Shown here: positions 32,862-57,295 of the stretch, piece after piece
Layout of the letters: each line of letters starts with the position of its first letter
Numbering within the stretch: position 1 is the first letter of the stretch
Origin: Candidatus Lokiarchaeum ossiferum
GTDB lineage: Archaea; Asgardarchaeota; Lokiarchaeia; Sigyniarchaeales; Promethearchaeaceae
Direction of reading: 5' to 3'
Length of the DNA stretch: 64,000 bases
Assembly (NCBI GenBank): GCA_025839675.1
Contig: CP104013.1
Location: 3,233,121 to 3,297,120, forward strand
Notes under the pieces: model-generated
Database searches by the model: none
What the model was told of the DNA's origin: nothing
What the model saw: the letters and a program-made list of their open reading frames with translations, nothing else
Program-made: the position numbers and the translations under genes

Positions 32862-33530
32862 TTGGAAACATTCACCCCAAGTTGGGAAAATTATTACTAT
32901 CGATTTTTCGATGGCTTAGGATATGATGTTGTTCATGTATATACAGGATATACTCGAAATCAGTTTTATAATGAACTTTATCAATGGACACCTCTCATTC
33001 AATGGGATGATGAATTGTTTATTATGATCCAAGGGCACGGGCTTGTGATGGATGATGAAGAAGAGACACCTTTACCGTATTTTACTCTCTATGATGGAGA
33101 TACTTTATATAATGGAGATAATGGTGAAATTTCAGGACAAGACTTCATAAATCGATTGATGTTATTTAGTGCTTTGAGGAAATGTGTATTTTTTGATACT
33201 TGCTATGCTGGAAAAGTGTTAGAAAGTTTTAATTCCGAAATTACCAAAGTTTTTCAAACTACTGATGCTACTCATGCAGCTGTGATGACATGCACTTATT
33301 ATGATGAAGCAATCGAAAATGCAAAATGGGAGAAAAGAAATACTCGGTTGGCAATTTTTTTTTTCCAAACTTTGAGTGCAACAACTTTAAGTGAGGATGG
33401 AATCTTCAATTATTTTCAGTTAGAACTAGCTTTAGAATCGTTATTACCATGGAATGATTTTTGTTACCAAGGAGGCACAATTCTGAATCCAGGTTGGAAT
33501 TTTTTGACTAAATATGGAATGTTATCATAA
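32862..33530 (+). CDS. Stand-alone caspase-like (clan CD-type His/Cys dyad) peptidase-domain protein
   Basis: A hydrophobic strand plus QGHG (LFIMIQGHG), then about 57 aa later a hydrophobic strand plus DxCxAG (KCVFFDTCYAG). About 80% identical to the C-terminal 220 aa of 41250..44498. Confidence 0.5.
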   Translation: METFTPSWENYYYRFFDGLGYDVVHVYTGYTRNQFYNELYQWTPLIQWDDELFIMIQGHGLVMDDEEETPLPYFTLYDGDTLYNGDNGEISGQDFINRLMLFSALRKCVFFDTCYAGKVLESFNSEITKVFQTTDATHAAVMTCTYYDEAIENAKWEKRNTRLAIFFFQTLSATTLSEDGIFNYFQLELALESLLPWNDFCYQGGTILNPGWNFLTKYGMLS

Positions 33531-33558
33531 TATTTGGGATATTAAACAATATTTCCCT

Positions 33559-33891
33559 CTATTTTTTTTTTTTAATAGCATTTTTTAATTCCCCAAAGGA
33601 GGTTTCTTTTCGCTTGTTATCATACCAACGTAAACTCCCAGTAAATCTTGACCCATGGTACCAAGTATCTAATAACTTTTTTCCTCCCAGTAAGTGGTCC
33701 CATGATTTTAGTATTTTTAATTCTTTTACGGTTCTTTTAGCAATGCATGAGTTACAGAAATAGATAGGAAGCGAAAAATAAGGGGTGTTTTCCGATGTTT
33801 GTTCGTTTACCGTGATAAATGGGTCCATATCAGTATACCATCTATGGCAAAAGTAGCATAGATTTTTGGAAGGTTCCTCATTTTTGACCAT
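33559..33891 (-). CDS. Small CxxC...CxxC zinc-binding protein. The start is probably the internal Met (MVKNEEPSKN), not the track's 33984.
   Basis: Aligns with paralog 44526..44864 from MMAKNKVPSKNLCYICQQW. The track's N-terminal 31 aa overlap the decayed PIN-like stub. Confidence 0.4.
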   Translation of the reverse strand: MVKNEEPSKNLCYFCHRWYTDMDPFITVNEQTSENTPYFSLPIYFCNSCIAKRTVKELKILKSWDHLLGGKKLLDTWYHGSRFTGSLRWYDNKRKETSFGELKNAIKKKK

Positions 33892-36373: not shown

Positions 36374-37102
36374 TTAATAATTTTCGACCATGCGTTCCCA
36401 CTTCGTTTTCCTAGGATATTTGGATTGTATTAGAGTCTTTTGGCGCGCTTTTCGTTTCCGACGTGCCTTTCCACTTTCAAAACGACCAAAATCTTCCACA
36501 AACACGGCGATGTCCGTTTCCTTTACCTGATAGGAAGGAGTTTTAAGCGAGGACGGAAGAGCCGATCGATCAAATTTCCGATGATAGACCCGCCCCATCT
36601 CCTCTAAAATATTCGCTGAGAGAATGAAGGTCACACTCGGATTGGATGTAAACATCTGTCGAATCCGCTCCCGTTGTGATCGCTGGTGATCACAAAAATG
36701 CAGCAGGATATTGGAATCGATCAAAACCATTGCATCCGCGGGTAAGTTGGCAATGTCTTCGGGCCAATAGGCTTCATAGTCCAAAAATTCCCGGAGGTTG
36801 ATCAACAGATGATGATCCAAAGACGCCACCCCCCATTGGTTTTCGGCGGCCAGATAGGCCACGATCCAATCATCCACCCCAAAGGCCAAGGGACGATAAG
36901 GATGTTGTTCTTGAATAACCCCGTAATGTTGCTCATAGAGGGCTAACTTTGCGGCAGGCACCGAGAGCGTATAGAGGTCAGGAAGAATTCGTGGAGGTAC
37001 ATTTAAACCTCGGAGAAAATCTACAACCTTCGGATGATGGGGGAGAGGCTCCAACACATGACAATTTTCGAGACAGAAGGGAAACTCGGCAAAGGGGGGC
37101 AT
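36374..37102 (-). CDS. PIN-like nuclease-domain protein with an unknown N-terminal domain and a basic tail. This is the intact copy of the cassette gene.
   Basis: The C-terminal half has the PIN-like acidic quartet: VLIDSNILL (D), ILEEMG (E), ETDIAVF (D), VEDFGRF (D). The tail is RRKRKARQK. The gene looks markedly GC-richer by eye than its surroundings. Confidence 0.35.
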   Translation of the reverse strand: MPPFAEFPFCLENCHVLEPLPHHPKVVDFLRGLNVPPRILPDLYTLSVPAAKLALYEQHYGVIQEQHPYRPLAFGVDDWIVAYLAAENQWGVASLDHHLLINLREFLDYEAYWPEDIANLPADAMVLIDSNILLHFCDHQRSQRERIRQMFTSNPSVTFILSANILEEMGRVYHRKFDRSALPSSLKTPSYQVKETDIAVFVEDFGRFESGKARRKRKARQKTLIQSKYPRKTKWERMVENY

Positions 37103-37270
37103 GAATCATCTTTTGGTTTCTAAGAAACTATAAAAAGATCACGATTGTGACAGAATTGAGATTTGCGAGTGGTTTTTATAGATCAAAAGCAGTAGTATGG
37201 ATGTAACCATTTGAATACAAAAGGATGAAATGACAAAAGTGGCATTCAAACTTTAGTCCACATCTCTTTA
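37098..37270. promoter_or_regulatory. Conserved divergent promoter/leader module, copy B
   Basis: A TATA-like ctataaaaag (37128) abuts the dyad tcacgattgtga. An oppositely oriented ggtttttatag (37171) follows. The conserved leader ends about 85 bp before the ATG at 37356. Confidence 0.5.
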
Positions 37271-37355
37271 AGACCTAAGGATAATTTTCAGAAAATGTAT
37301 TCGAAACTGGAAACATGAAATTACTAATAACGCAAAACCAAAAAGTGAAAAAAAT

Positions 37356-40300
37356 ATGAAACCAAAAAAATTAATCTTCATCTTTTTTGTAGGAATCCTC
37401 ATGGTCCCCATCTTCCCCCAAGCGCAACTTTCCTTCGCAAGTGCAACGGTGGGTCAAAGTAATGGAGTCTGGGAAATAACCTATAATACTGATGATAGTG
37501 CAAATGTTGGTCCACTCTATGATGCCAACGGATATACTGCAATTTCCGAGTTAGATCCTGCAAGTTCAACCAATACATGGTACGATTATTCCCCATTAGA
37601 AGCAGGACATCAAGAATTAGACTTTGAATGCAATATCAAATTTGAAAATGGAGGTCGGAAACACATTTATCTGTATTTGGATAACGATCCCTCCCAATAT
37701 TTCCTACTGCAATATGAAAATGGGGATGTGTTTTCATACACTACAGATAATTGGGTAAAACAAAGCCAAAATATGGATTATAGTTATAATACTTGGCTGT
37801 CGTTTCAGTTAGAACTGATTCAAACCAGCTCCACCACAAAATTATTAACCGTAACTTTAGGAACCGATTCTTTTTCGATCGAACTGGATAGTGACAGTAC
37901 TGTTGACGCACTCAAAATGCGCACAATGACGGCCGGAAGTTCCGTCTTCTTTTCTGACGTCGAAGTGTCTTATTTGGAGGAATCCTGGCAAAGAATTTAT
38001 CCTGCGGAAAGCTCTGCATCTGCAATACCCCTTAATGATGAAACGGACGATGGACAGCTGTATTCAGATATTTATGAATTGGAGATGGACGTGGGACTGA
38101 ATACGTGGTATGAATATACCAAATCGGGAATTGAATACAATTTCTTGCATTTTGATTGCAATTTGAAATTTCTGGATGGAGGAGCTAGAAAATGGTATTT
38201 TTATTTTGATGATGGGGCTTATTTCATTATCAACTTCGAAAATCAATGGATCAGATCATATGTTTCGAATGCTGACGTGCCAAACTGGGTTTCTCAGAGG
38301 TCTTACGGCTATGGGGATTGGAATCATATCGAATTTGATATCGTTCAAAAGAATTCTGTAACGAAAGAATTAAAAATGAGCATAAATGGGCTCCCATTTA
38401 CTTATCCTGTCCTTATGTCTAGTGGATTCAATGTGAAAATTGAATACTTAAGAGTGCGTCTTCAAACTAGCGGAAGTCTTTTGATTTCCGATATGGCAGT
38501 CGATAATGATCAGGATGGATTGGATGAGGTTGAGGAAGCTATGCTAGGGTCTGATCCTCTCCTTAAAGATACTGATGGCGATTTTGCTTATGATGGGGAA
38601 GAAGCCTCTATCTATGGAACGGATCCAACGGTTCCCGATGAGGCAAATGGTTTTACACTGATCTATCCAGAAGGTGGTCCAGGCAGAGTTGATATTTCCA
38701 CAGATTCATCTACCGGTTCAAAGATATATCAGCTAAATTCGGAAGGTTCATCTAATACTTGGTTTCAACATCGATTGAATGGCCTAAGAGCTCAATCTGT
38801 CGGATTTCATTGTAAAATAAAAGTGCATGATTCTCAAGAAAAATACTTGTACTTCTATTTTGACGATGGTGATTATTTCATAGTTCGATTTATTAATCTA
38901 CATCTCTATACCACCTATATTCATAATGGGGTTGGCAACGGGTGGAGGGATCAGTATATTTATTATGGGGACCAGGATTGGTTGGATTTATCAATCACTA
39001 TTACTGGAGGACCCAATATCAAAACATTAGATGGATCTTTAGATGGAAATCCCTTTGATGATTCCGAATTCATGTATTCGAAAGGTGTTTTTGACAAGCT
39101 TAAAACCCGCCAAACTGGAACGGATAATTTGTGGAGTTTCACGGAGTTTATGATTGATTCGGATTTGGATGAGTTATCTGATGTAGAGGAACTTGATTTA
39201 GGCACCGACCCGACGGATGCGGATTCGGATGGGGATGGGTTAACCGATGGAGAAGAAGTCAATAATCATGGCACTAACCCTCTAGTGGCGGATTCGGATG
39301 GTGATAAATTTTCTGATCTCCTCGAAATTCGTGGGAAATTAAATCCTATGGATCCCAGCGATGTATTTACAGATGAATGCACCCTTGGAGGTTATGTTCC
39401 AAGCGAATGGGTGATTCCAAGCTCAGATGTGGGCATCCAAGCAATACCAAATGATTGGGATGATACTAGTTATTTAAGCGACAATTTTATGCTCTCTATC
39501 AGTCCCACATATCGGCACGATTCTCGCAGTATAGAAATTCCATTACAACAACTAGATGTCATGGAAAATTTTGCATTTTCATGTTATGTTGGGCAAAATT
39601 GGTTAGGAGGTGAAGAATCATGGCAAATTTATATTAAAGATACTTCAGGAAAAGGTTTTGCTTTGAACTATAAAGGTGATCAATTCTACATTAGTGATAC
39701 TACACTTCTTTCTTTCAGCTCGGATATTATTCAAGTACCTAATCCAAATAAAATTATGCATGAAATGAGGATAACCTTAAAATTTGTTGGCGATCATACC
39801 GATATTTTCCTATATTTTGCAGATACTTCAATGGGTAACTACTCCATCGAGATGGGAAAAATGTTATCCAAAATCATTGTTACTCGAACAACGACTTTTA
39901 ATACTCCTGAGATACCCTCCTTTGGATTTGATAATTTTAAAATAATCCAATGGAAATGGCCTTATTATAAATTGATGGAAACTTATCCTTCTAATGAAGG
40001 GAGAGATGGGCATTTAACCATTAATAACGTCCAAAAAGGCGTTGGTAAAGGACCTGGGTTCTATGAAATAATGTCCTCTGTCGATTTTGATCGGAATTGG
40101 AATGATGATGGTTTGGAAGGGATGCACTTGGATGGTTCTTTTTGTGATACAGGTTCCTTCAATTTTGTTTCTCATGCAAAATTATTTGATATATTCGGGA
40201 CTGGAATTACCCAACCTCAATCAAGTATAACTAAAATGGAACTTGATTTAAAGATCAATGGTCCTGATGGTCCTATCGATTTATCTACAGCAAATGGAAT

Positions 40301-40841
40301 CAGTAATCTAATAGATCCATACTTAATTAACATGATTGAAAATTTGGACACTATTACAGATTTAAATGAGGTTACTGAAATTCTTGAAGGAGTTGGGACA
40401 CTCTACCAAGTAACAGAACAATTATTAGATATGTATGATACCGTACCTGAATCACTTCAAGATGTTTTGGGACCAATTTCCCTGGTTATGGATCTTGTGG
40501 GTTTTTATTCTGAGGAAAATACACCACATCCCGAGTGGACTTGTGATACATTAGATAATGATCCTTATACCTATCAAGTCAAATATGACTTTGATTTCGT
40601 ATCTGGAGTTTCTTGGGGTAGTACAAATTTTGCTATGGGATTTAATTTAAATTTTTACGAAGTAATTGAACATCTTGAAGAAACAATGGATATTGGTGAC
40701 AGATACACTTTTACGATAACTCAAAGAACATTCTTGACTGGGATTTCCTATAATTGGATCTTTGGAAGATGGGAAGAATCCACAGAAATTATGGTTGAAG
40801 ATACTTTTAAATTTGAACTCACATCCACCGATTCTTTTTAG
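37356..40841 (+). CDS. Giant secreted protein with three roughly 190-aa jelly-roll/LamG-like repeats separated by Ca-binding DxDxDG (TSP3-like) linkers
   Basis: Signal peptide MKPKKLIFIFFVGILMVPIF. Internal repeats carry NTWY.Y...FDCNLKF..GG.K.Y.YFDDG.YF. DTDGDF, DSDGDGLTDGEE and DSDGDKFSD motifs. Confidence 0.55.
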   Translation: MKPKKLIFIFFVGILMVPIFPQAQLSFASATVGQSNGVWEITYNTDDSANVGPLYDANGYTAISELDPASSTNTWYDYSPLEAGHQELDFECNIKFENGGRKHIYLYLDNDPSQYFLLQYENGDVFSYTTDNWVKQSQNMDYSYNTWLSFQLELIQTSSTTKLLTVTLGTDSFSIELDSDSTVDALKMRTMTAGSSVFFSDVEVSYLEESWQRIYPAESSASAIPLNDETDDGQLYSDIYELEMDVGLNTWYEYTKSGIEYNFLHFDCNLKFLDGGARKWYFYFDDGAYFIINFENQWIRSYVSNADVPNWVSQRSYGYGDWNHIEFDIVQKNSVTKELKMSINGLPFTYPVLMSSGFNVKIEYLRVRLQTSGSLLISDMAVDNDQDGLDEVEEAMLGSDPLLKDTDGDFAYDGEEASIYGTDPTVPDEANGFTLIYPEGGPGRVDISTDSSTGSKIYQLNSEGSSNTWFQHRLNGLRAQSVGFHCKIKVHDSQEKYLYFYFDDGDYFIVRFINLHLYTTYIHNGVGNGWRDQYIYYGDQDWLDLSITITGGPNIKTLDGSLDGNPFDDSEFMYSKGVFDKLKTRQTGTDNLWSFTEFMIDSDLDELSDVEELDLGTDPTDADSDGDGLTDGEEVNNHGTNPLVADSDGDKFSDLLEIRGKLNPMDPSDVFTDECTLGGYVPSEWVIPSSDVGIQAIPNDWDDTSYLSDNFMLSISPTYRHDSRSIEIPLQQLDVMENFAFSCYVGQNWLGGEESWQIYIKDTSGKGFALNYKGDQFYISDTTLLSFSSDIIQVPNPNKIMHEMRITLKFVGDHTDIFLYFADTSMGNYSIEMGKMLSKIIVTRTTTFNTPEIPSFGFDNFKIIQWKWPYYKLMETYPSNEGRDGHLTINNVQKGVGKGPGFYEIMSSVDFDRNWNDDGLEGMHLDGSFCDTGSFNFVSHAKLFDIFGTGITQPQSSITKMELDLKINGPDGPIDLSTANGISNLIDPYLINMIENLDTITDLNEVTEILEGVGTLYQVTEQLLDMYDTVPESLQDVLGPISLVMDLVGFYSEENTPHPEWTCDTLDNDPYTYQVKYDFDFVSGVSWGSTNFAMGFNLNFYEVIEHLEETMDIGDRYTFTITQRTFLTGISYNWIFGRWEESTEIMVEDTFKFELTSTDSF

Positions 40842-41035
40842 ATTTTTATTGCTTTTTTTTTCTCAGGCTATAAGTATATTTTTTTTCTCATTTTTGATAA
40901 TATTTTCTTGATTTAAACGGAGAAAATATGAGTTATGAAATTTTGATGAAAATCAAGAAATTCTTTTCATTATGAAAACCCGAAAAATAAGAAGAAAAAC
41001 ATCTTTCCGAAACATCCATTGATATCTCATCAAGC

Positions 41036-41190
41036 ACCTATAAAAAGATCACGATTGTGATAGTTGTGCAAATTGCGAGTGGTTTTTATAGATCAAAAGC
41101 AGTATTATGGATGTAACCATTTGAATACAAAAGGATAAATGGACAAAAGTGAGAAACCGATTTTTGTTCCACATCTCCTTAATAGTAATT
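41036..41190. promoter_or_regulatory. Conserved promoter/leader module, copy C (lacks the minus-gene stub)
   Basis: cctataaaaagatcacgattgtgatag...ggtttttatagatcaaaagcagtattatggatgtaaccatttgaatacaaaaggat. Confidence 0.5.
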
Positions 41191-41249
41191 TTTCAATATC
41201 CTTTTTGTATTCTACTTGAACAATATTTAAAAGAAAAAAGGTAAACATA

Positions 41250-44200
41250 ATGAATCAAAAAAAAAGACTGCTATCGTTATATGCGTTGCTTCTTTTGACC
41301 TGTTCCGCCTTAATATATACTAATATGGGAACTGGGGTCGCAGAAATCAATATTTCAGAATGGACAAATGTGCCAAATTATGGTCCTTCGGAATTATCCA
41401 ATTTCATGGATGAAGATCGAGGGGAGGTAATGAAAATATATGATGCCGGATGGGGATTAGTCCAAAAGGATATAATTCCGCAATATATTGCAGGAAACAA
41501 AATTTGGTATTCCTATTGCGTGAAAGTAACTGGTGGGGAATCGAATGATTATGGGGGGGTGAATTTAAGCCCATCTACCATCAACACTGGGGCCGTAGGA
41601 ATGCGAATTCATGCGGGAACGAGTTTAAAATATTGGCTTGGAGATGGACAAGAGCATGATACATTCATTGACGTAGAAACAGATCAATGGTACCACATAG
41701 GATGTTCATATGAGTCTGATGGTCAATTCGAAGCATATTTGGATGGGGAGATGATCCTTTCAGAACAAGCCAAGCCTATCAGCAATTTAAATTATGTTTA
41801 TGCTGCAACATGCTCCCAATCAACTTTTCTGGATGATATCTATGTTGGAGTTTCTAAGGATGAAGCATTTAATAGTTTCCAAGATGAAGTAACTACCATA
41901 CTAATTGATGATTTTTCGGAAGATTCGATTGGGTTTTTACCCTTAGATTGGGAACTAACTGCAGGCGGATATTCATCTTTTAGAACTGTAGAACTAGCCG
42001 AATCTCCATATGATCAGGTTTTAAGAATCTATGATTATGGACAAATTCCCACCGTATACTCAAAAGTGGAAAAAAAAATTCCCGCTGGTTTTGGATCTAT
42101 TGAATGGGATTTAAAAACAGATTCACCAGGAAATAATAATGGTTATTTCGGATTGATGGAAGGGGATAATTGGTTGATATCGATTGGGATAATAAATAAT
42201 CAATTCAGAGTTTATTACCACAATGATCATGCTTCGTATAGTGTCTACGACACAAACGTTGTTGCTTCAAATCAATGGACCCACCTTAAAATGGAGTATG
42301 ATGGCGAGCAAGATGATTGTCGAATATTTGTTAATGGGGTTGAGGTAAGAAGTACACCATTCAATACAAAATATGCCTCTTTTGTTGATGGTCTATATTT
42401 ACACTCAGGAGAAACTGGATCTGGAAAAAGTTATTATGACAACATTCAAGTGAACTGGGTAAAACAGCGTGTGGATTCTTTTATGGAATATGCTGGCATT
42501 ATCAATTTTGATGATAGTTACAATCAAGATCCTCTAGCAAGCTGTCAAGAATGGTCTTCCGATGTTAATTCGGGCTATCAAATCCTAGATGCAGTGACCA
42601 CACACTCAAGTGTATTGGCAATAACCGATTTAGTTTCTTCTTCGAGCTGCTTTACAAAACTAAACATTAATACTCCTTTAGGGGTTGGAGGCTGTGTAGA
42701 AGGATGGATATCTGGATCGAGTATCATAAATAATGCGTATATGGGCATTAATTTTGGGGATAATTACTGGTTATTGTCCGTGGGGATCAATAATGGTCAT
42801 TTTAAAGTTTATCATCGAACGAGCTATTCAACATATAGTACCGCTGTTTCTACCATAGAAGCAAATCCAAATCAATGGTATTTTGTTTGTTTATATTATG
42901 ATGGTATGTCTGATATTTGTACTGTATCGATAAATGGTGTTACTATTGGACAATATAGTCTTTATGACGTTGCTGGAATTACATCAATATATCTCCATTC
43001 GGGAGAAAATGGGGGGGGTACAAGTTACTATGACTCAATTTCGTATGATTGGGCAAATGAATATGATGCAGGAGATGCAAGAATAATAGACTTCGATAGG
43101 GACCATTTAAGCCACAAGTATGAAGAGACCCATATTTATGAATCTGGATTAAAAACTTCTCCTTGGAAATGTGATTCTGATAATGATAGGGTAAATGATT
43201 GGGATGAAATCTGTGGTATCTACGGATATATTACTGATCCAACTCGGATTGACTCTGAACCGATTGGATCTGAAGATGGGCTGAATGATTATTTAGAATT
43301 ATTTAGATATCATACCGATCCAACTCACTATGATTCTGACCGTGATGGGCTGACTGATGGAGATGAAGTCAACTTATATGGCACCGACCCGACCACGGCG
43401 GATTCGGATGGGGATGGGTTGACCGATGGGGAAGAAATAAATGGGTATGATATGATGTATCTAGACGAGCTTTATCATGAACATAAATATGCAACATATT
43501 ATACAAATCCGCTTCTTGTTGATTCAGATAATGATAATTGGAGTGATAAGCAAGAACTTGATTTGATACAAGCTGATTTAGATCAAATTCATGAACCTAA
43601 TCCTGCGGTAGATAACTATCGGTATTTAGATCCAATGTGCCGAGATAGTGATTTAGATTTTCTTCCCGATGGATGGGAAGAATATTATGGACTCGATCCT
43701 TGTGAATATAATTCAGAGCTGGAATTAATCGAAAACAATGTTCCTGATATATATTATTTCTTTGCGCCAATTCAAGAACCAGATCAAGAACGGGTCTCGG
43801 GATTGCGAATTGCCTTGATATTCATTAATCCAGACATAGTTTCGCCAAGTTGGGCAAATTATTACTCTCGAGTCTTCGATAAGCTAAATTATGATGTAGT
43901 GCATGTTTATACAGGTTACACCCGAAATCAGTTTTATAATGAATTGTATCAGTGGACACCCCTTATTCAAGCGGATGATGAATTATTTATAATGATCCAA
44001 GGACATGGGCTGGTGGAGGACAATGAAGAAGAAACTCCGTTGGCGTATTTCACTCTTTATGATGACGATGAGGTGTTTGACCAGGATGTTGGTGAAATTT
44101 CGGGACAAGAGTTTTTAAATCGATTGAAGTTATTTAGTGCCTACAGGAAATGTGTGTTTTTTGATACCTGTTTCGCTGGAAAAGTGCTTGAAAATTTCGA

Positions 44201-44498
44201 TTCGGAAATAACTAAAGTCTTTCAAACTACTGATGCCACCCACGCACAGTATAGAACAGTCAGCAAATTTGATAAGATTATGCAGAATGCTAAGTGGGAG
44301 AAAAGAAATACTTATGTTGCATCATTTTTCTGGGATACTTTAGGTGCAACCACTCTAAGTGAAGATCCAATTTTCAAATATATTCAGGCGGATTTGGCAT
44401 TTGGTTCTCTTTTACCGTGGAGTCGAACGGGTTATCAAGGAGGAACTATTTTGAATCCGGGCTGGAATTATTTGGAACGTTATAATATATTTGTCTAA
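41250..44498 (+). CDS. Giant secreted LamG/jelly-roll protein with TSP3-like Ca-binding repeats and a C-terminal caspase-like peptidase domain
   Basis: Signal peptide. WYHIGCSYESDG.FEAYLDGEMI is LamG_3-like. DSDGDGLTDGEE is present. The C-terminus has LFIMIQGHG ... KCVFFDTCFAG. Confidence 0.55.
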   Translation: MNQKKRLLSLYALLLLTCSALIYTNMGTGVAEINISEWTNVPNYGPSELSNFMDEDRGEVMKIYDAGWGLVQKDIIPQYIAGNKIWYSYCVKVTGGESNDYGGVNLSPSTINTGAVGMRIHAGTSLKYWLGDGQEHDTFIDVETDQWYHIGCSYESDGQFEAYLDGEMILSEQAKPISNLNYVYAATCSQSTFLDDIYVGVSKDEAFNSFQDEVTTILIDDFSEDSIGFLPLDWELTAGGYSSFRTVELAESPYDQVLRIYDYGQIPTVYSKVEKKIPAGFGSIEWDLKTDSPGNNNGYFGLMEGDNWLISIGIINNQFRVYYHNDHASYSVYDTNVVASNQWTHLKMEYDGEQDDCRIFVNGVEVRSTPFNTKYASFVDGLYLHSGETGSGKSYYDNIQVNWVKQRVDSFMEYAGIINFDDSYNQDPLASCQEWSSDVNSGYQILDAVTTHSSVLAITDLVSSSSCFTKLNINTPLGVGGCVEGWISGSSIINNAYMGINFGDNYWLLSVGINNGHFKVYHRTSYSTYSTAVSTIEANPNQWYFVCLYYDGMSDICTVSINGVTIGQYSLYDVAGITSIYLHSGENGGGTSYYDSISYDWANEYDAGDARIIDFDRDHLSHKYEETHIYESGLKTSPWKCDSDNDRVNDWDEICGIYGYITDPTRIDSEPIGSEDGLNDYLELFRYHTDPTHYDSDRDGLTDGDEVNLYGTDPTTADSDGDGLTDGEEINGYDMMYLDELYHEHKYATYYTNPLLVDSDNDNWSDKQELDLIQADLDQIHEPNPAVDNYRYLDPMCRDSDLDFLPDGWEEYYGLDPCEYNSELELIENNVPDIYYFFAPIQEPDQERVSGLRIALIFINPDIVSPSWANYYSRVFDKLNYDVVHVYTGYTRNQFYNELYQWTPLIQADDELFIMIQGHGLVEDNEEETPLAYFTLYDDDEVFDQDVGEISGQEFLNRLKLFSAYRKCVFFDTCFAGKVLENFDSEITKVFQTTDATHAQYRTVSKFDKIMQNAKWEKRNTYVASFFWDTLGATTLSEDPIFKYIQADLAFGSLLPWSRTGYQGGTILNPGWNYLERYNIFV

Positions 44499-44525
44499 AT
44501 TTCGGGATAGTGAGTAGTTTTGCTC

Positions 44526-44864
44526 TCACTTTTTTTTTATTTCTTCTGCATTTAATGAATCCCCAAAAATGATTTCCTTACGCTTTCTATCAACCAACCG
44601 CAAATTTCCCGTAAATAAGGGCATATGAAGCCACGTATTTAATAATTTTTCCCCTCCCAGTACATGATCCCATGATTTTAATATTGTTCTTTCGTTTTTC
44701 GATATTTTCGCAAGGCACGAGCTACAAAAAAAAATAGGTAATGGATATGGAATGGAATTATTGGGTCTTTTTTCGGTTACCGTAATAAATGGGGACATAT
44801 CAGCACGCCACTGTTGACATATGTAACATAAGTTTTTGGAAGGTACTTTGTTTTTGGCCATCAA
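44526..44864 (-). CDS. Small CxxC...CxxC zinc-binding protein (cassette partner)
   Basis: LCYICQQW...FFCSSCLAK. Paralog of 33559..33891. Confidence 0.45.
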   Translation of the reverse strand: MMAKNKVPSKNLCYICQQWRADMSPFITVTEKRPNNSIPYPLPIFFCSSCLAKISKNERTILKSWDHVLGGEKLLNTWLHMPLFTGNLRLVDRKRKEIIFGDSLNAEEIKKK

Positions 44865-44934: not shown

Positions 44935-45006
44935 TTAGTTTATATTGATGATGAGCCGTAAATTCCAATTCTCGAGATCGAAGGGGACCTCGGAGGGGAG
45001 GGGCAT
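44935..45006 (-). pseudogene. 23-codon stub of the PIN-like cassette gene (MPLPSEVPFDLENWNLRLIININ*)
   Basis: Starts at the conserved gggcatgaatc position of module D. Aligns with MPPFAEFPFCLENCH. Confidence 0.35.
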
Positions 45007-45165
45007 GAATCGCCCTATGTTTTTGGGATGCTATAAAAAAAACTCGCTTGTGACAGAAGTGTAAATTTCGTGTGGTTTTTATAGATCAAAGTCAATATTA
45101 AGCATGTAGCCATTTGAATGCAAAAGGATGAAATGACAAAACTGGAATTCAAGCTATCGTCTTTG
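45001..45165. promoter_or_regulatory. Conserved divergent promoter/leader module, copy D (more diverged)
   Basis: gggcatgaatcgcc...gctataaaaaaaactcgcttgtgacag...gtggtttttatagatcaaag...catttgaatgcaaaaggatgaaatgacaaaa. Confidence 0.45.
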
Positions 45166-45230
45166 CCTCTTCCATTCCTCACCTTGATTTTCTGCCAAAA
45201 GTTCTTCAATGGGATACAGTGTGATAAAAA

Positions 45231-48029
45231 ATGTTGGATAAAAATAAAAAAGGCAAGAAGAAATTGTCCTTGGGATCTAAAATCGGAATGTGCCTCTTCA
45301 TTGTTGCGATGATCTCTACCAATAGCCCAAATCTGATAAAAAGCGCTTCAGCAATTTCCGTGAATGATTGGGAATTAAATCCTGAATGGGAAGGGTGGGA
45401 AGAGGATTCTACTCTTGGAAATCAATATACACGCGTCGCTGAATATTCAGATTTAGGCTCACGAGATCCGGTGTTGGGACTCCGCGATGGTTCCTATTAT
45501 GGAGAAGCGAAAATAAAGAATGAATTTCCCAACCAACCTGCGGGGGCTTTTTCCACCGAATTGAAAATCGTTGAAACCTCTTATGGAAATGAGGATTGTT
45601 CTTTTATTCGATTTTATTCAGGAACAACAATTGCTGCTGCTTTAATTATTGATAATAATTTTAGATATGCTCCTGACCAAGGAGTATCCGATGCCCCTAT
45701 AAGATCGATCAATGTGGAATTGGAGACGTGGTACCACTTTGCTGCTGAATGGAATAGTCAAGCAACTGGAACTAATGAGTGGACATTTTACATTAACGGT
45801 CAAATTATTGCTCAGTTCGATTCGACCAATCCGTTTTCAGGAATTAATAATATCACAATTAGTACATATCTTGGCGATATAACTCATAATCTGACCTTAC
45901 ATAACCTACGACATATGGATGATTCTTCCACAATTAACCAAATTTGGGAAGAAGATAAATTTTTTGAATGGACTAGCGGTGGGACGAATCAATGGTGTCA
46001 TATTTCGACTAACATTTTTGAAGATCGAAACGTGTTAAAACTAAACGATGGTTCATGGGTCGGGGAAGCAATCGCAACAGCGAACTTTGATTTATCCGAA
46101 AAGGGATCGTTTTCTACAAATATTCGAATTGTTGATTCTGGTTATGGAGAAACAGATTGTTTCCTAATTAGATTTCTCTCAGGATCGACTGTGAGCAGCT
46201 ATATGACCATGTGGGAAGATCAAGGTGTAAATACGATCAGATTTTGTGGATCTGACGGCAATTCTTACCCCACAGGATCAACATACTCTACTAATGTGTG
46301 GAATGATGATTTCAAAGCCGAATGGGATTGCTCAGGAAGTGGTAAAGACCAATGGGTTTTTTCTCTGGGAGGCACAGTAATAAAGACATTTGAATCTGAA
46401 AAATACACTTCAGGAATTAATCAAATTTCGATTCGCTCTTTATATAGCAAACCAACCAATTATGTCTATTTTAATGATATTCAAATCGATTCGGATGATG
46501 ATGGTCTATCACGTAAAGAAGAATTGCTCTTTGGCACCGACCCGACCACGGCGGATTCGGATGGGGATGGGCGCGAGGACGGGGTGGAGATTAGATATAT
46601 GACAAATCCTATAATAAATGAAGTCTTTTGGGAAGATTTTGAAGAAATTTCTTTACCAAGTGGATATATTGATAATGGAGATACTATCGGAGAGTGGCAA
46701 GTGGCTAAAGATAATGATGATTTTTGTGATCTATATGTCGATCAGAGTCCAAGCTATTGGGGAGAATCTTCTCAAGTTTTATGGCTTCATACTACTGATG
46801 AAAGTCTCATTGATATTTATAAAAATGATATCGCTTCATCTGGAGATAATTTGGTTTATTTTCGCTCCTCTATTAGTATAGGACAGCTTCAGTATCAACA
46901 GTTTTATGTTGATTTTACCTATGGAACTTCTTCACGCTTGCATTTTCTGTTTTCTAGTGGAGAATTATTTTTCTGGGATTCCTATTATATATATGGGAAA
47001 CACCTTACTGCTTATAAACCTGTATATGATGCAGCGAGCAATGTTGTTGTTTATAGTGAAGATCAAAAAATTGATTTCGAAGTATTCATTGATAAGGACC
47101 AATCCACTTGGACTCTGAAATGGAATGGACAAGCAATAATGAAGCAATATGATCTTGATTTTGGTAATACTTTTAATCGAGTGATTTTAGGCACACCATC
47201 AACATCTTCTGGACGAGTTTTTCTTGATGATCTCGTTTTTGAACATGGGAAAATCACTAAAGATGATTCGAAGACCTTATACAATAAAATAGTTCCGAAT
47301 ATAGTCGCCTGTTTACCTGGGTTCAATGAGGAATTCTCTGAAGATTCTATTGGCGATACTAGCCTTGTAGGATTAGAAATATCATCAATCGTTTCTCGAG
47401 ATACTGAGTATTCCTTCAATTTTCCTTTTGTTTCAGTTAGTTATGATGATGAAATTGAAACGGGTCCACATCATGATGAGGTTCGAACAATTGGTCAAGA
47501 ACATTGGTATTGGTACTATAAAATTTATGGAGATATTGAATTTTACTCAATCGACTTAACAGAGTATTCATATTCTGCTTCCTTTTTGGCATTTTATTCA
47601 TTTGACCCATATTCAACTCAAAACACCGTACTTACCAATCATCCCTATTCAGATCTCCGCGATGATTGCTCGTATTTAAATCAGGAAACATTTGATTATT
47701 GGGTCCAGCCATCATATACTTCTGAATACTCTTGTCCTCAACAATACACGGATTCTGGGAGTCAAACTCAAAAAGGATGGGATTACACCATTAGTAAACA
47801 AACCACATTAGGATTGAATTTTGAGTTATCCTTTGCCACACCAGTCCAATCAATTTCTCTTCCCCTTGGCATATCTTTTGCATTCAATGTTGAACGAGAT
47901 TTAGATTTCTGGTACTATCTGATATTGAAAGATACCCATACTTCTACTAAATCAGTAACTTATAATATGAATGCCAATGTAGCTAAAGGTTTTTATACTT
48001 TTTTTATTAGTGATTTTAAGATTCACTAA
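45231..48029 (+). CDS. Giant secreted LamG/jelly-roll surface protein with one TSP3-like Ca-binding motif
   Basis: Signal/anchor region (KIGMCLFIVAMISTNSP). Repeated ETDCFLIRF..G motifs. DSDDDG...DSDGDGREDG. Confidence 0.55.
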   Translation: MLDKNKKGKKKLSLGSKIGMCLFIVAMISTNSPNLIKSASAISVNDWELNPEWEGWEEDSTLGNQYTRVAEYSDLGSRDPVLGLRDGSYYGEAKIKNEFPNQPAGAFSTELKIVETSYGNEDCSFIRFYSGTTIAAALIIDNNFRYAPDQGVSDAPIRSINVELETWYHFAAEWNSQATGTNEWTFYINGQIIAQFDSTNPFSGINNITISTYLGDITHNLTLHNLRHMDDSSTINQIWEEDKFFEWTSGGTNQWCHISTNIFEDRNVLKLNDGSWVGEAIATANFDLSEKGSFSTNIRIVDSGYGETDCFLIRFLSGSTVSSYMTMWEDQGVNTIRFCGSDGNSYPTGSTYSTNVWNDDFKAEWDCSGSGKDQWVFSLGGTVIKTFESEKYTSGINQISIRSLYSKPTNYVYFNDIQIDSDDDGLSRKEELLFGTDPTTADSDGDGREDGVEIRYMTNPIINEVFWEDFEEISLPSGYIDNGDTIGEWQVAKDNDDFCDLYVDQSPSYWGESSQVLWLHTTDESLIDIYKNDIASSGDNLVYFRSSISIGQLQYQQFYVDFTYGTSSRLHFLFSSGELFFWDSYYIYGKHLTAYKPVYDAASNVVVYSEDQKIDFEVFIDKDQSTWTLKWNGQAIMKQYDLDFGNTFNRVILGTPSTSSGRVFLDDLVFEHGKITKDDSKTLYNKIVPNIVACLPGFNEEFSEDSIGDTSLVGLEISSIVSRDTEYSFNFPFVSVSYDDEIETGPHHDEVRTIGQEHWYWYYKIYGDIEFYSIDLTEYSYSASFLAFYSFDPYSTQNTVLTNHPYSDLRDDCSYLNQETFDYWVQPSYTSEYSCPQQYTDSGSQTQKGWDYTISKQTTLGLNFELSFATPVQSISLPLGISFAFNVERDLDFWYYLILKDTHTSTKSVTYNMNANVAKGFYTFFISDFKIH

Positions 48030-48593
48030 TATTTTTTTTTAACCTAGCCAAATTTTTAGTATATTTTGAAGCCCTAGAGAAAAAGAATAGTCCTGAATTT
48101 CTTAACTCGAAAAAAAACTTTATAGGAAAAACTTGCCAAAGGGGTTAAAAAAAGATTTTGATCCCAAAGGGGAAGAAAACTGACAGGTGTGGAATTGGAA
48201 GCGATTTTGTGACTGTTTCATCGGTTTTGATCAAATGATAAAAGATCAGTTATTAGGAAGGGATGAATGACTATCTGAAAAATCACTTTTGGGACTGAAT
48301 TAAGCGGAGTATTAGATAATATAGAAAGTGTATAGAGGTTGAAAAAGATTCGAGGAAGCATAGCGAACCAACAGGATTTGCAAAAGAAAGGACCGCCAAC
48401 ATGAGAAATCAAGGTTATGAGACTACCACCATCCAAAATGACTACATGAAATTCATATCGCGTCTATAATTGAAGATATTTTTTGGTGTGAATCTTTATC
48501 CTAAGAAAAGTCAAACCTAGCAAAATAAAGCGGTTTTTTTTAATACTTCTACTTTACATTTCAATCCGATAGGAAAAGTAGTGGATGGATGCT

Positions 48594-48752
48594 TTACTCG
48601 TTCTCTGGTATTAAAGCAGCCTTCAATTTCCGAACCGCTTCCTTGATCACTTCTGCCCGTGAACTATACCCAAATTTGGGATTCTCGAGGATTTTATCAA
48701 TATATTCTTCCACAAAAGGTTCAGGCAACGAAATCGAAGCAAATTTTCCCAT
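48594..48752 (-). CDS. CopG/Arc/MetJ-type ribbon-helix-helix protein (52 aa). Missed by the ORF track because it is under 60 aa.
   Basis: Hand translation gives MGKFASISLPEPFVEEYIDKILENPKFGYSSRAEVIKEAVRKLKAALIPENE*. The strand SISLP...Y, the FGYSSRAEVIREA helix and its length are the classic RHH signature. Confidence 0.55.
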   Translation of the reverse strand: MGKFASISLPEPFVEEYIDKILENPKFGYSSRAEVIKEAVRKLKAALIPENE

Positions 48753-49435
48753 ATTTGCTCTAGAGATGCCCTACTATTTATGTTTGTTGCTTGGTTTAAG
48801 TTCAATTATGTATCCATGATATATAAGTGAAGTATGATAGATCGATAAATTATATTTATAAGGATGCGTTTCATACAATTATGTATCAAACACAGATCAA
48901 GCACGAGTAATGCTGATTCTTTTTGAACATGTCTTCCGAGTTTATAAGTTTCAAAAAGTAATTACAGTATCATAAATCTGGAAAAACAGATCTGTTTGGT
49001 AACCTATAGATTAGCGACAAACGTCCCAAGAGGTCTCATTATGTCTCAAAAACCTAGAATATCAATAACAACAGGGCAAAGGTCAACATCCTGTGTCAAT
49101 CCTACCAAGTCTCCGTCAGAACCGCACGGATCTCCCATATCTGCCATCAATCCATTGGCAGATCAATCGCTTTCTCCTTCTGGATCTAAATTTTATTATC
49201 AGTATTTTAACGATCAAAATCATATTGAATGTTTTTGAACGTGAGCGATTATTATGGGAAAGCACTCATGAGGAACTCAGCTACTTACTTTTACATGTAT
49301 CCAATAAAAATGACCTTATATCATCTCTATCAACAAAAAAGAGCTTCAAAATTAAAGGATCAGATAATCTTACCTTATGCTAGATTTCAATAAAAAATCA
49401 TGATCAGATTTAATTTTGGAATATTAGAAAAAGAT

Positions 49436-50589: not shown

Positions 50590-50840
50590 TTTTTTTTTAA
50601 GAATATTATCTCAGATAATGTTTTTTCATATTGATCATTCATAGAATGCAAGAAGAAATTGGATTTTTCCAAAGATAAAGAGGTCTGGAAAAAAAGTTGG
50701 ACTTCTTTTTTAGAATTTTTTCTCATTTTGAGGAAAAATTTCTTTCAGGGAAAATCTCAGTTCATCCTTTTGCATTCAATATTTGAACACTATTCATAGG
50801 GTGATATTTCTATTTAAACACCGTGGTAATAGCAAAATAA

Positions 50841-51762: not shown

Positions 51763-51876
51763 ATTAATTATTTCCTATTTTTTTTTACATTTATTGTGAG
51801 TGTCAAGGGGCATTAGCCGATTCCTCGCCTCAAATAAAGATTCAATTTAAATTTCTGCGAGATAAGGAATGTCAAA

Positions 51877-53668: not shown

Positions 53669-56600
53669 TTAGCCTCGTATTGTTGAAATAGTCATGAAAT
53701 TTGAAGTAAATCTTCCATCTAATGGTTGGTTCGTACCATCAATGCTCATATAGAAACCTGTAGTTATTTCGAAATTAACAATATAGGAAATTGCACTAGA
53801 TTCAGAAACTAGATCAGTAAAGAAATGCTTCATTGTTATTTCTCCATTAAAATATTTCGCTGGATTCATTGTCAAATATCGTGAACCTAAATCAAAATCC
53901 CAAGAAAAATAGTTCCCTTGAATTGATTTTGTTAGAAAATTTGGTTGAAAAGCAGAAACCATCCCACCTCCAACATTTAATGCGCCAACTAACTCGTCTA
54001 ATGGCCCTAAGGGACCATCTGCTATATTACTACCGAATAGTAATAATAATTCAAAAATTGCATAGGCCTCTGTTCCGACGCTTGCATCATATTCATCACC
54101 AAGATTGATACCATCGGTCTCATAATTGATTTCAGCATCCCCTGAACTGGTCCTGGACACATCAAGGTCCAATGGATGTACTGGAACACCATCAATAAGA
54201 ATTCCCATTGATATGGTTAATCCTTGAAGATATGCCCACACATCGAAACCATTATAGTCTGGATGATTGATCTTCGTAGATTCAACACCAGTTTGGAACC
54301 TTAAATCAACTTCTCCATTTGTAGCACTAAAATCATGAAAACCTCCATCTTCTTCAAGCAAACCCCAATCATATTGGAGACCAAAATGACCTCCCAAATA
54401 TCCAGAGCGAGGATCTGAACTGGAAAATTCGTGTTTGGGTCCAGCCGTCATATCATCATGTAAATTATAATAATTATTATCAAGAAATTGATAGGTTGTT
54501 GGATTAGAATAGCAATTTTCATAATAATTAGAGATTTTTCCAAATTTGATGTTATCTACAAGAATATCTTGGGTTCCTTTAAAATAGAAACTTAAATAAC
54601 TATACGAACTATCAGGAAGAACAGCTATCATAGGATAAGACACACGGCTTACCCCATCAATTCGAAAATCATAAGTATTGGTGTATCCATTCATTTCGAC
54701 TTGAATGTTGTATAATGAATTCGGAGACAACTCTATTTGCTGAATTTTCTCACCTGTAGGAGTGAAAAAACCGATACTGTATCCATAAAACTTTATAAAT
54801 AGATTATAGTTCGTCTGAGGAATCATATTTGACCAGCCTAATTGTAACCACATTTCATCTATTCGAGTGCTTGTAAATAAATCAAAGCTAATTACATTAT
54901 TCTCAAAATTCTTTGAAGGATACACTTTTTTATTGAATCCCATAAATCCTTCAGACACATGGACCTTTAAGGCTTTTGAAGATTCTGTACCAAAGCCAAC
55001 AGAATCTGCAACTACTTCAGTATATTGGTTTGAATTTTCTGAGAAACTAATTTCCCATCCATCTGGATTTGATCCGATGCTATCATATTCAAAATGTCCA
55101 ATATTCCAGCTTAAATCACCTCTGTCGTACCCATTTTTAGGATCTGTTTTAAAAATTTTCACTTCTAATCCATCATTGAACCCATCCTCATCCGAATCAG
55201 CATCCATCGGGTCGGTACCCAAGGCAATTTCTTCCCCATCTAAAAGTCCGTCATCATCCGAATCAGAATCTAAAGGATCCAATCTATTTGATGAAATAAT
55301 CACATTATCTAGGTAAGTACTATATCCAGAATAACTGTTATAAGTTTCAAAAACAACACGTGAAATATAGGAAGCAGGTGAATAAAAAGCAAGATTTGAA
55401 CCTATAGAGGAGGAACCTAGGAAAACCGAAAATGTATCCGTTGCAGTATCCCAACTGATTTTGAGATCTTTTTTCCATTCATTACTCGCAATATTTTCCA
55501 ACAAATGCCAAGAAGATCCGTCGTGATACTGCAGCCCATTATGGCCTCCATAACTTACAATTGCCATTAGAATTGCATTTGAACTACCTTGCCGTAAGAG
55601 TATATAAGTTATTTTCGCAGTATCAGTGGACATAATATCAAAAATCATTGATCCTTTTGTAGTATATTCAAAATTTTCATAAATACCTGCAGAACCTGTT
55701 CCATGATCATACAATATAGCAGTATCATCATTCGGCCATGCTCCTGATCCAACGATGCATCCAGACCCTTGAATTTTCGTCCATCCTCCAAAAGGATTTT
55801 CATTCGCAGGGAATTCCCAAGAATTTAACTCGCGATTTCCATTTATATATGAAAATTCCACACAATCGCTTAATCCATCGTTGTCAGAATCAGAATTTGT
55901 TGGATCAGTATGTTCTCTAATTATAACATCGTCCACGTAGGCAGAATAACCGGTTTGGCTACTATAGGTTTGGAACTGCATTCGAGAAATGGAGCTGACA
56001 GGATTATAGAAATCAAGGTTTTCAAATTTTTCTCCCGAATCTGGAAAATATATATTACAGGTGTCTGATAAGGTGTTCCATGATATCTTGATAGATAACC
56101 AATCAGTATAGCTACATTCTTTCAACAAATTCCATTGGGTACCATCATGATATTGTATGCCATCTCCTTCTGCTGTACGATAATTTGCCATTAATATCGC
56201 ATTTGTGCTTCCTTGCTTCAAGAGAATATAGGTTAATTTAAAATTCGCATCAGTCCTGAATTCGAACTCCGCTGAACCAGAAATTAAGGAAGAATCAAAA
56301 TTAGCATAAATTCCAGCGGTTCCCGTGCCATAATCATAAAGGCGAACGGCATTTGGATACGGCGTATTAACGCTATCTACCACTGCACAACCGGATCCTG
56401 TAACGATGTTCCAATCCATCCCTAAGTCATCATCTACGCCATTATCTGTAAAATCCCAATCATAGAGTAAATTACTTCCTCCGATTCCACACATCTCATC
56501 AAAATCGGTCAATCCATCCCCGTCAGTATCGAAATCCTGTTCATAAAGAATTTCCATTTCCTCTTCAGAGAATGCTCTATTAAACAAACCAATTTCATCA

Positions 56601-57295
56601 ATTTTTCCATCAAACCATCGATTATCAGCTGATCGATAGGTTCCGATATTCATGCTAGTAATCGGTTCTAAAGATCCACCTGTGGAGACTTGTCCTTCCA
56701 ATTGACCGTTTAAATATAATTTAAATCCATTGGTAGTATCTTTCTGATAAGTTGCCGCTAATTGATACCACTGGTTTGGAACAATTATTGTGGTTCCTGA
56801 AGCGACTCGCGTACTTGAATCTCTAAGATATCCTTTTGCAATGGGTGTTGGACCTTTTTCGATGCATATCGAAATGGACCACAATGGGGTTGTTTCTAAT
56901 ATAAAGCGCCTACCTTCTAATCCCCCTCCTCCTCCATCCCATTTAAACCATGCGGAGATTGTATATTCTGTAGAACCATCGGGAAGAGTCTTATGTGGCA
57001 CCGAAACATAATCATTGGAACCATCAAAATTATAACAAGAACTTGATCTTCCCAACCGATCGGTGGCAGGGGTTGCACCATGAAAAACACCATTAAAATC
57101 GTTTACAGGCTCATTAGCATTTCCATCCAAATCCCACCGCGCATATAGATCATCAGCATAAGATAGAAGAGCGGAACTTGGTTGTAGAAATTGTTGAATA
57201 GTTAAGGGTAAGCACAAACATATCAACAAAGTGGCAGTAATTTTTGTTTTATATTTCATTTTTCTCATTTTTGAGTTGTTTTCTATTCTTATCAA
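53669..57295 (-). CDS. Giant secreted LamG-domain surface protein with duplicated internal modules and a TSP3-like Ca-binding motif
   Basis: Signal peptide. Textbook LamG_3-like region (ATDRLGRSSSCYNFDGSNDYVSVPH...NQWYQLAATY...LYLNG). Internal repeats (ILL(K/R)QGSTNAILMA). DADSDEDGFNDG. Confidence 0.55.
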   Translation of the reverse strand: MIRIENNSKMRKMKYKTKITATLLICLCLPLTIQQFLQPSSALLSYADDLYARWDLDGNANEPVNDFNGVFHGATPATDRLGRSSSCYNFDGSNDYVSVPHKTLPDGSTEYTISAWFKWDGGGGGLEGRRFILETTPLWSISICIEKGPTPIAKGYLRDSSTRVASGTTIIVPNQWYQLAATYQKDTTNGFKLYLNGQLEGQVSTGGSLEPITSMNIGTYRSADNRWFDGKIDEIGLFNRAFSEEEMEILYEQDFDTDGDGLTDFDEMCGIGGSNLLYDWDFTDNGVDDDLGMDWNIVTGSGCAVVDSVNTPYPNAVRLYDYGTGTAGIYANFDSSLISGSAEFEFRTDANFKLTYILLKQGSTNAILMANYRTAEGDGIQYHDGTQWNLLKECSYTDWLSIKISWNTLSDTCNIYFPDSGEKFENLDFYNPVSSISRMQFQTYSSQTGYSAYVDDVIIREHTDPTNSDSDNDGLSDCVEFSYINGNRELNSWEFPANENPFGGWTKIQGSGCIVGSGAWPNDDTAILYDHGTGSAGIYENFEYTTKGSMIFDIMSTDTAKITYILLRQGSSNAILMAIVSYGGHNGLQYHDGSSWHLLENIASNEWKKDLKISWDTATDTFSVFLGSSSIGSNLAFYSPASYISRVVFETYNSYSGYSTYLDNVIISSNRLDPLDSDSDDDGLLDGEEIALGTDPMDADSDEDGFNDGLEVKIFKTDPKNGYDRGDLSWNIGHFEYDSIGSNPDGWEISFSENSNQYTEVVADSVGFGTESSKALKVHVSEGFMGFNKKVYPSKNFENNVISFDLFTSTRIDEMWLQLGWSNMIPQTNYNLFIKFYGYSIGFFTPTGEKIQQIELSPNSLYNIQVEMNGYTNTYDFRIDGVSRVSYPMIAVLPDSSYSYLSFYFKGTQDILVDNIKFGKISNYYENCYSNPTTYQFLDNNYYNLHDDMTAGPKHEFSSSDPRSGYLGGHFGLQYDWGLLEEDGGFHDFSATNGEVDLRFQTGVESTKINHPDYNGFDVWAYLQGLTISMGILIDGVPVHPLDLDVSRTSSGDAEINYETDGINLGDEYDASVGTEAYAIFELLLLFGSNIADGPLGPLDELVGALNVGGGMVSAFQPNFLTKSIQGNYFSWDFDLGSRYLTMNPAKYFNGEITMKHFFTDLVSESSAISYIVNFEITTGFYMSIDGTNQPLDGRFTSNFMTISTIRG

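Follow-up and report, generated by a model that had tools for sequence, protein, structure and literature searches.

Near-identical TSP3 repeat DNA in otherwise diverged, predicted secreted-protein genes of Candidatus Lokiarchaeum ossiferum: a probable case of short-tract gene conversion

Bacterial-type TSP3 repeats (Pfam PF18884) occur in secreted and surface proteins, in which tandem copies of the pattern GTDPxxxDSDGDGLxDGEE, each including a DxDxDG loop, link globular domains. Concerted evolution by short-tract gene conversion is known among paralogous surface-protein genes, where it is recognised by islands of DNA identity between saturated flanks, by mosaic tract ends and by the proximity of the partners. 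The features of both were found in a 39-nt block, GGCACCGACCCGAC....GCGGATTCGGATGGGGATGGG, that recurs in four genes (referred to as g1 to g4) of the archaeon Candidatus Lokiarchaeum ossiferum strain B35, within a 64-kb stretch of its genome that constituted the whole of the DNA analysed (the window). At the protein level there is no difference from bacterial TSP3; only the encoding differs, with rare codons ending in guanine or cytosine (G/C) that are identical across the paralogs. Compared to other cases of concerted evolution, the tract is very short, at approximately 40 nt, and strikingly rich in G+C at third codon positions (GC3) in an archaeal genome with a G+C content (GC) of 33%, and conversion is here read from sequence.

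GC-biased gene conversion is known mainly in eukaryotes and has been proposed for bacteria. Enrichment of G and C at synonymous sites coincides with an apparently converted tract here as well, but the aspartate (Asp) codons stay GAT and there are only four copies. Two further systems invite comparison. In cassette antigenic variation, e.g., Neisseria pilE/pilS and Borrelia vlsE, short conserved DNA segments lie within otherwise variable surface-protein genes. In the C-terminal displacement known from Rhs or CdiA type polymorphic toxins, the C-terminal domains that come after a conserved junction motif are unrelated to one another. The present genes resemble the former in their short conserved segment and the latter in the dissimilarity of what follows it, and a stand-alone C-terminal copy is located nearby. 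No publication on TSP3 or LamG proteins of L. ossiferum emerged from literature searches.

We attribute the near-identity of the block DNA to recent short-tract gene conversion among neighbouring, old tandem paralogs, with a probability of approximately 0.6. An earlier note on this DNA had suggested gene conversion or recombination between cassettes, and this remained the best explanation, given that synonymous identity is far higher in the block than in the flanks. The feature is real and statistically solid, and its explanation is ordinary: a known repeat and a known process, amounting to routine concerted evolution.

The shared block and its encoded repeat

Three copies of the block were found on the plus strand of the window, in g1, g2, and g3 (Table 1), where dinucleotide-preserving shuffles led to an expectation of zero matches. 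The near-identity of these copies had been described in the earlier note and was confirmed, with coordinates corrected by 1–3 nt. An exact run of 40 nt, consisting of the block and the preceding T, is common to g2 and g3, and the g1 block differs from theirs solely in four adjacent middle bases (GGAT versus CACG). A fourth, minus-strand copy had also been reported; it exists in g4, with 31 of 35 specified bases identical, but its core runs from 55219 to 55181 and not over about 55195–55260 as proposed. A weaker relative of the block (26/35) is the following repeat of g1, at 39270. The host genes had been termed giant, which overstates their size, as the encoded proteins have 932–1208 amino acids. 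Independent, read-based Logan contigs (SRR22273277) were 100% identical to the window wherever they overlapped it, which ruled out an assembly artefact as the origin of the block. The edge of one contig falls at 46542, the first unique 31-mer past the 40-nt repeat of g2 and g3, indicating that this repeat is present in the reads and not only in the finished genome.

The three plus-strand copies are the top three 39-mers by GC in the window (0.69–0.74; mean 0.34, standard deviation 0.09), that of g1 being the third, and the g3 copy together with its continuation is the GC-richest 57-mer (0.74). The GC-rich island described before was thus recovered, albeit with a qualification: approximately two thirds of the GC excess at codon positions 1 and 2 is simply due to the encoded amino acids (G, T, D, P, A, S), and the real anomaly is found at third positions, with G or C in 9–10 of 13 codons compared to gene averages of 0.28–0.31. 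The GC3-rich stretch of g3 comprises 19 codons (16 of them ending in G/C) and extends past the end of the shared tract. This continuation, which is not common to g1 and g2, hints at a GC-rich source state carried only partly by those two genes. The five CpG dinucleotides of the block were close to the expectation from base composition and were uninformative. Antisense open reading frames (ORFs) over the block (38963–39262 on the minus strand and 54867–55316 on the plus strand) were judged to be by-products of Asp/Ser/Gly codon repeats.

In all four genes, the block is in frame, in the same codon phase, and encodes GTDP(T/M)(D/T)ADSD(G/E)DG. Judged by this motif, it is ordinary coding sequence for the GTDP turn and the putative DxDxDG calcium-binding loop of a bacterial-type TSP3 repeat, a standard repeat that was unrecognised in the earlier note. 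Scores against the Pfam TSP3_bac model (cutoff 25 bits) were 47 for g1 and 50.7 for g4, and marginally under the cutoff for g2 (24.5) and g3 (22.5). A DxDxDGxxDxxE motif after a (G)TDP turn is nevertheless readable in each of g1 to g4, with a spacing of 22–23 residues between the first (R1) and second (R2) repeat, and calcium binding by these linker repeats is predicted from the motif. Each module has two or three repeats, of which the block-bearing R2 is closest to the family consensus, and forms a linker joining the N-terminal and C-terminal parts of the protein. The codon triplet GAT TCG GAT is also found in R1 and the third repeat (R3) of g1. Farther upstream in g1, at residues 381–430 (window 38496–38645), a second, degenerate TSP3 pair (DNDQDGL...GSDPLLKDTDGDF...YGTDPTVPDE) uses ordinary codons and served as an internal control.

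Codon identity and tract boundaries

Most of the 13 codons of the block are minor codons in the window, where the share among synonymous codons was 7.6% for GGC, 9% for CCG, 8.7% for TCG, 10.5% for ACG, 13% for GCG, 13.6% for GAC, 15% for GGG, and 18.5% for ACC. The third base is G or C in every one of the eight non-Asp codons, while Asp is encoded by GAT at four of five positions (at three of four in g2 and g3). Among the 15,130 windows of 13 codons in 38 ORFs, the block copies rank within the top 24 and are the strongest rare-codon cluster of g1, g2, and g3. Given the peptide, the probability of the codon string was 5e-10.

The comparison of synonymous divergence in the block with that in the flanks, proposed in the earlier note as a check, showed far higher identity in the block. 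Where two genes have the same residue, they also shared the codon in 60 of 68 cases (88%) in the block vs. 442 of 898 (49%) outside it. Codon usage predicts 454 of 898 (51%) outside the block, indicating that the flanks are synonymously saturated. The contrast was larger for residues with four- or six-fold degenerate codons, at which 35 of 43 codons (81%) were identical in the block and 103 of 404 (25.5%, chance level) outside (Fisher p = 7e-13, the gene pairs not being independent); for g1 to g3 alone, 23 of 25 were identical in the block. The same peptide is encoded differently elsewhere: GTDPT at residue 421 of g1 reads GGA ACG GAT CCA ACG, and the other xTDP turns of g1 to g4 combine GAT with CCA or CCT, vs. 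ACC GAC CCG in all four block copies. The non-block repeats of g1 to g4 are mostly AT-rich, yet the rare TCG encodes eight DSD serines of the family, which suggests that homogenisation extends to R1 and R3.

Similarity between the genes ends sharply at the limits of the shared segment. Between g2 and g3, identity was 40/40 inside the block and 47/140, which is about random, outside it, in agreement with the strong divergence of the flanks noted earlier. Counted from the block start, the best high-identity segment spanned positions 1 to 63 for g1/g2 (55/63), −47 to 39 for g1/g3, and −45 to 62 for g1/g4. For each of the six gene pairs, none of 300 permutations matched the observed contrast between inside and outside. 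Three segments, with few informative sites, gave three different groupings: in the R1 repeats, g3 grouped with g4 (21/27); in the four middle bases of the block, g1 and g4 stood against g2 and g3; and in the 27 nt past the block, g1 grouped with g2 (20/27) and g3 was unrelated (11/27). This mosaic implies at least one recombination event, or convergent multi-base change.

Searches beyond the window returned no match to the full block pattern in 185,579 species genomes or in JGI metagenomes, and none in viral contigs. A 20-nt half-block was found at 62 loci of the same species genomes, once each and none of them Asgard (locus GC 0.33–0.73, mostly above 0.5), and a relaxed pattern was found in 18 metagenome contigs, again once each and none Asgard (GC 0.43–0.66). 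Each of these matches was a lone TSP3 repeat in an unrelated organism, in most cases one with mid to high GC, and the codon choice of the block resembles that of GC-richer organisms. The best outside match to the whole block was 34/39, in a metagenome-assembled genome (MAG) of the Myxococcaceae. Since the outside loci hold one copy at most, three copies within 7.4 kb represent a local phenomenon.

The codon pattern is also absent from TSP3 repeats of other AT-rich Asgard archaea. The GC3 of such repeats was at the level of their own gene in a Heimdallarchaeaceae locus (33% GC), a Thorarchaeota locus (33%), a 38%-GC locus encoding a relative of a Sigynarchaeota protein, and 19 repeats of a protein of L. 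ossiferum strain B36 orthologous to NEF87_004127 (35%). The possibility that TSP3 repeats are generally encoded by GC-rich DNA, be it in Lokiarchaeum or in AT-rich Asgard archaea at large, was therefore rejected. An effect of codon context on serine between two aspartates was rejected as well, since in the B36 protein the serine of DSD motifs is encoded by AGT, TCA, or TCT.

Explanations for the identity of the block

Because the paralogs diverged long enough ago for their synonymous sites to be saturated outside the block, its near-identity most likely reflects recent exchange. Such exchange would have been short and non-reciprocal, by short-patch gene conversion or ectopic recombination between genes 3–16 kb apart, and may have been patchy, with tract ends differing between gene pairs. 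It may also be that, in genes so AT-rich and diverged, pairing was stable enough in the GC-rich stretch alone. We infer that the rare GC-ending codons mark the history of the converted tract, which could have involved either a GC-richer source copy or GC-biased repair of heteroduplexes. Under this explanation, the LamG/TSP3 secreted-protein cluster of a cultured Asgard archaeon would contain paralogs that are otherwise saturated and still exchange sequence, and would illustrate neatly, on a small scale, how a converted tract and extreme GC3 can coincide in an AT-rich archaeal genome.

Several observations weigh against conversion. Orthologues were absent: protein searches with g2, g3, and g4 returned the B35 protein and matches confined to TSP3 or LamG that covered at most 23% of the query, so that selection on nucleotides or codons is inseparable from conversion by cross-species comparison. 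One simple recent tract is insufficient for g1 vs. g2 and g3 because of the four-base difference in the middle, so that g1 requires either a pair of very short patches, repair that was patchy, or a multi-base change that came later. The combination of G/C-ending non-Asp codons with GAT for most Asp codons is expected neither from plain GC-biased conversion nor from a very GC-rich donor. The Fisher test assumes independence of the six gene pairs, an assumption that does not hold. Lastly, the copies were counted within the window, and a master copy or further copies may exist elsewhere in the B35 genome.

Of the alternatives, purifying selection on the codons survived best, although we regard it as rather unlikely. 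The block would then be a selected cluster of rare codons that slows translation at a domain linker, or another element acting at the mRNA or DNA level within coding sequence. Its rank as the top rare-codon cluster of g1 to g3 and its location at the boundary of N- and C-terminal domains in every gene would agree with such a role, as would the two identical halves that flank the four-base difference of g1. The retention of GAT for Asp while all other codons are rare and G/C-ending likewise looks codon-specific and not compositional. Selection would, however, have to maintain the identical rare codon, and not just any rare codon, at 7 of 8 positions in g1 to g3. As alternative rare codons exist at eight positions (GGC/GGG, ACC/ACG, and others) and yet only one of these differs among the three genes, selection for rarity alone is insufficient. 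Common codons were moreover found in the other TSP3 repeats of g1 to g4 and in the 19 repeats of the B36 protein, and the pattern was absent from the other genomes, metagenomes, and viral contigs searched. A structured RNA element was rejected: folding gave z-scores of −1.09 to +0.37, with structures that differed between copies, and no Rfam match reached the gathering threshold. Conversion, rather than codon selection, is most likely what keeps the copies identical.

It is unlikely that the composition of the block reflects a TSP3 repeat recently imported from a GC-richer donor, copied into four linkers and not yet drifted to the AT-rich codons of the host. The codons are those of mid- to high-GC organisms, as illustrated by the half-block and metagenome matches, the GC3-rich stretch of g3 extends beyond the shared tract, and R2 is the repeat nearest to the family consensus. 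The cluster itself is apparently strain-specific and part of the flexible genome, since no B36 homologue was returned for g2, g3, or g4 even though proteins of strain B36 were in the searched database and the two strains share 97.2% average nucleotide identity (bioRxiv 10.64898/2026.02.13.705702). When the B36 locus was sought via identical flanking proteins, only B35 read assemblies were returned. On the other hand, no candidate donor was found, the Myxococcaceae match being the best available, and whole-gene GC3 is ordinary, at 0.27–0.31. Import would in any case refine the conversion explanation rather than replace it, because conversion would still be needed to place the repeat at the same in-frame linker position in four old paralogs.

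A third explanation assigns the block a function in recombination, as an in-frame junction or homology cassette at which C-terminal domains are swapped, by deletion or duplication among g1 to g3 and by inversion with g4. The equal codon phase in all four genes, the inverted orientation of g4, and the position between partly related N-terminal parts and mutually dissimilar C-terminal parts would suit such a junction. That C-terminal modules move in this region is indicated by g2, whose caspase-like C-terminal domain has a stand-alone copy. Together with approximately 160 nt of 3' flank (43845–44662), this domain is a diverged duplicate of NEF87_002771 (gene 32862–33530; homology 32877–33692), with 75% DNA identity over 838 nt and 72% protein identity. 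With the same codons at 63% of identical residues, the duplication is younger than the split of g1 to g4. The stand-alone copy nonetheless lacks the block, and its homology to g2 begins approximately 430 nt downstream of it. No recombinase domain was detected in 24 ORFs scanned with Pfam, and only PD-(D/E)XK-like and small GIY-YIG ORFs were found nearby. Each of the four is a full-length gene that has its own promoter-like element, start codon, and signal peptide, and there are no silent or promoterless cassettes.

The analogy with known systems is correspondingly limited. In contrast to cassette antigenic variation, neither silent cassettes nor a single expression site, recombination machinery, or an initiating element were found here, and a single conserved block takes the place of conserved segments around a variable one. 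In contrast to Rhs or CdiA type toxins, no toxin domain was detected, the junction sequence is missing from the orphan copy, and neither an immunity-like gene after the C-terminal domains nor a small same-strand ORF after g1 to g4 is present. A programmed switching site, which the earlier note had offered as its alternative, is unsupported, because the genes are complete with their own promoter-like element, no recombinase was found in the scanned ORFs, and the orphan C-terminal module lacks the block; a conserved fold was also lacking, as was an exact copy in the other genomes, metagenomes, and viral contigs searched. It is very unlikely that the block, with its rare codons and high GC, owes its preserved DNA identity to a role as an in-frame homology junction in a homology-driven domain-shuffling system, in which neighbouring secreted-protein genes would exchange C-terminal domains, and its composition to GC-biased repair. 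A functional junction as such was considered slightly less likely again, and the same applies to its extension to surface-protein variation resembling the C-terminal displacement of polymorphic toxins or cassette switching. If true, with chimeras at the block, this would be a first hint of recombination-driven surface-protein variation in Asgard archaea. Strains of L. ossiferum have been described as lacking an S-layer and carrying unordered surface densities (bioRxiv 10.64898/2026.02.13.705702).

Chance identity of codons under conservation of the protein alone was excluded, since, for all the strong conservation of the peptide motif and the near-invariance of Asp and Glu codons in the genome (GAT constitutes 86% of Asp codons), the improbable codon string was found three times against none in shuffles, GTDPT elsewhere in g1 is encoded differently, and synonymous identity at four- and six-fold degenerate residues is far above that of the flanks.

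Host genes and their surroundings

The proteins encoded by g1 to g4 are predicted to be large, secreted, and mostly of LamG type, all with a signal-peptide-like N-terminus. In g2, g3, and g4, the N-terminal part is a LamG-like jelly roll, with a distant relationship among the three (24–28% identity); no similarity to these was detectable in g1. Among the C-terminal parts, no pair was significantly similar. When the coding sequences of the four genes were compared at the DNA level, the sole significant similarity was around the TSP3 module.

Table 1. Positions within the window of the block-bearing genes, their block copies and repeats, and the conserved upstream elements.
Feature	Position	Strand	Description
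g1 (NEF87_002777)	37356..40841	+	1161 amino acids; signal peptide; sole Pfam match TSP3
g2 (NEF87_002778)	41250..44498	+	1082 amino acids; LamG domains, TSP3 linker, caspase-like C-terminal domain
g3 (NEF87_002780)	45231..48029	+	932 amino acids; distantly LamG-like N-terminal part, TSP3 linker, orphan C-terminal part
g4 (NEF87_002787)	53669..57295	-	about 1200 amino acids; LamG and sialidase-like carbohydrate-binding module (CBM) domains, TSP3 linker, orphan C-terminal part
g1 block copy	39201..39239	+	GTDPTDADSDGDG; GGC ACC GAC CCG ACG GAT GCG GAT TCG GAT GGG GAT GGG
g2 block copy	43380..43418	+	GTDPTTADSDGDG; with preceding T, 40-nt exact repeat with g3
g3 block copy and continuation	46533..46589	+	block 46533-46571, then CGC GAG GAC GGG GTG GAG
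g4 block copy, diverged	55181..55219	-	GTDPMDADSDEDG; ACC GAC CCG and TCG retained
g1 TSP3 linker module	39156..39338	+	degenerate R1, block-bearing R2, degenerate R3
g2 TSP3 linker module	43308..43445	+	R1 (ordinary codons), then block-bearing R2
g3 R1 repeat	46488..46532	+	DSDDDGLSRKEELLF; nearest to g4 R1
g4 R1 repeat	55220..55264	-	DSDDDGLLDGEEIAL
Upstream element, g1	37116..37289	+	conserved, promoter-like
Upstream element, g2	41026-41199	+	copy of g1 element
Upstream element, g3	45019-45192	+	copy of g1 element
Upstream element, g4	about 57427-57500	inverted	copy of g1 element
Upstream element, orphan fifth copy	about 50757-50862	-	without long ORF downstream

All four genes are preceded by a non-coding element of approximately 175 nt, with 71–86% identity among copies. 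Its two TATA-like boxes are in inverted orientation (CTATAAAAA / TTTTTATAG), and conservation continues for approximately 60 nt past the second box. RNA structure was unsupported for this element (−4 kcal/mol, no covariation), which is probably a shared, possibly bidirectional, promoter or operator. The start-to-start spacing of 3.9–4.0 kb indicates that g1 to g3 are old tandem duplicates. A 98-nt direct repeat (94% identical), at 53465–53562 and 57597–57694, brackets g4 and its upstream element with a spacing of 4132 nt, near the 3.9–4.0 kb unit of g1 to g3; the two copies could mark the limits of a unit in an old tandem array, or flank an insertion.

Divergent from g1, a minus-strand ORF (36374–37102) without Pfam match is atypical in composition (GC 0.476, GC3 0.48). 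Its first approximately 13 codons (MPPFAEFPFCLEN) and the adjoining DNA recur upstream of g3, at 44966–45023 (MPLPSEVPFDLEN), where no comparable full-length ORF is present, indicating that the duplicated unit once included the start of the divergent gene. The region 48030–52384 has few long ORFs and gives the appearance of a fifth family unit that has decayed or been disrupted. It contains a PD-(D/E)XK-like ORF (50125–50589), a 90-residue GIY-YIG ORF (51490–51762, minus strand), and the orphan upstream element, and is followed by an HFX_2341-like regulator at 52385–53179. Within the same ORF-poor 48–52 kb, a GC-rich, tRNA-like fragment (49439–49497, minus strand) combines an Ile-like anticodon arm (GAU) with a T arm and an encoded CCA end but lacks a D arm. 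It scored 23.6 bits against the Rfam tRNA model (E 0.12, below the gathering threshold), was not called by ARAGORN, and could be a tRNA pseudogene or the remnant of an integration site. At the other end of the window, a minus-strand ORF (4661–6127) combines EF-Tu-type GTPase domains with a match to archaeal SelB domain III, which is consistent with a selenocysteine-specific elongation factor of this Lokiarchaeon.

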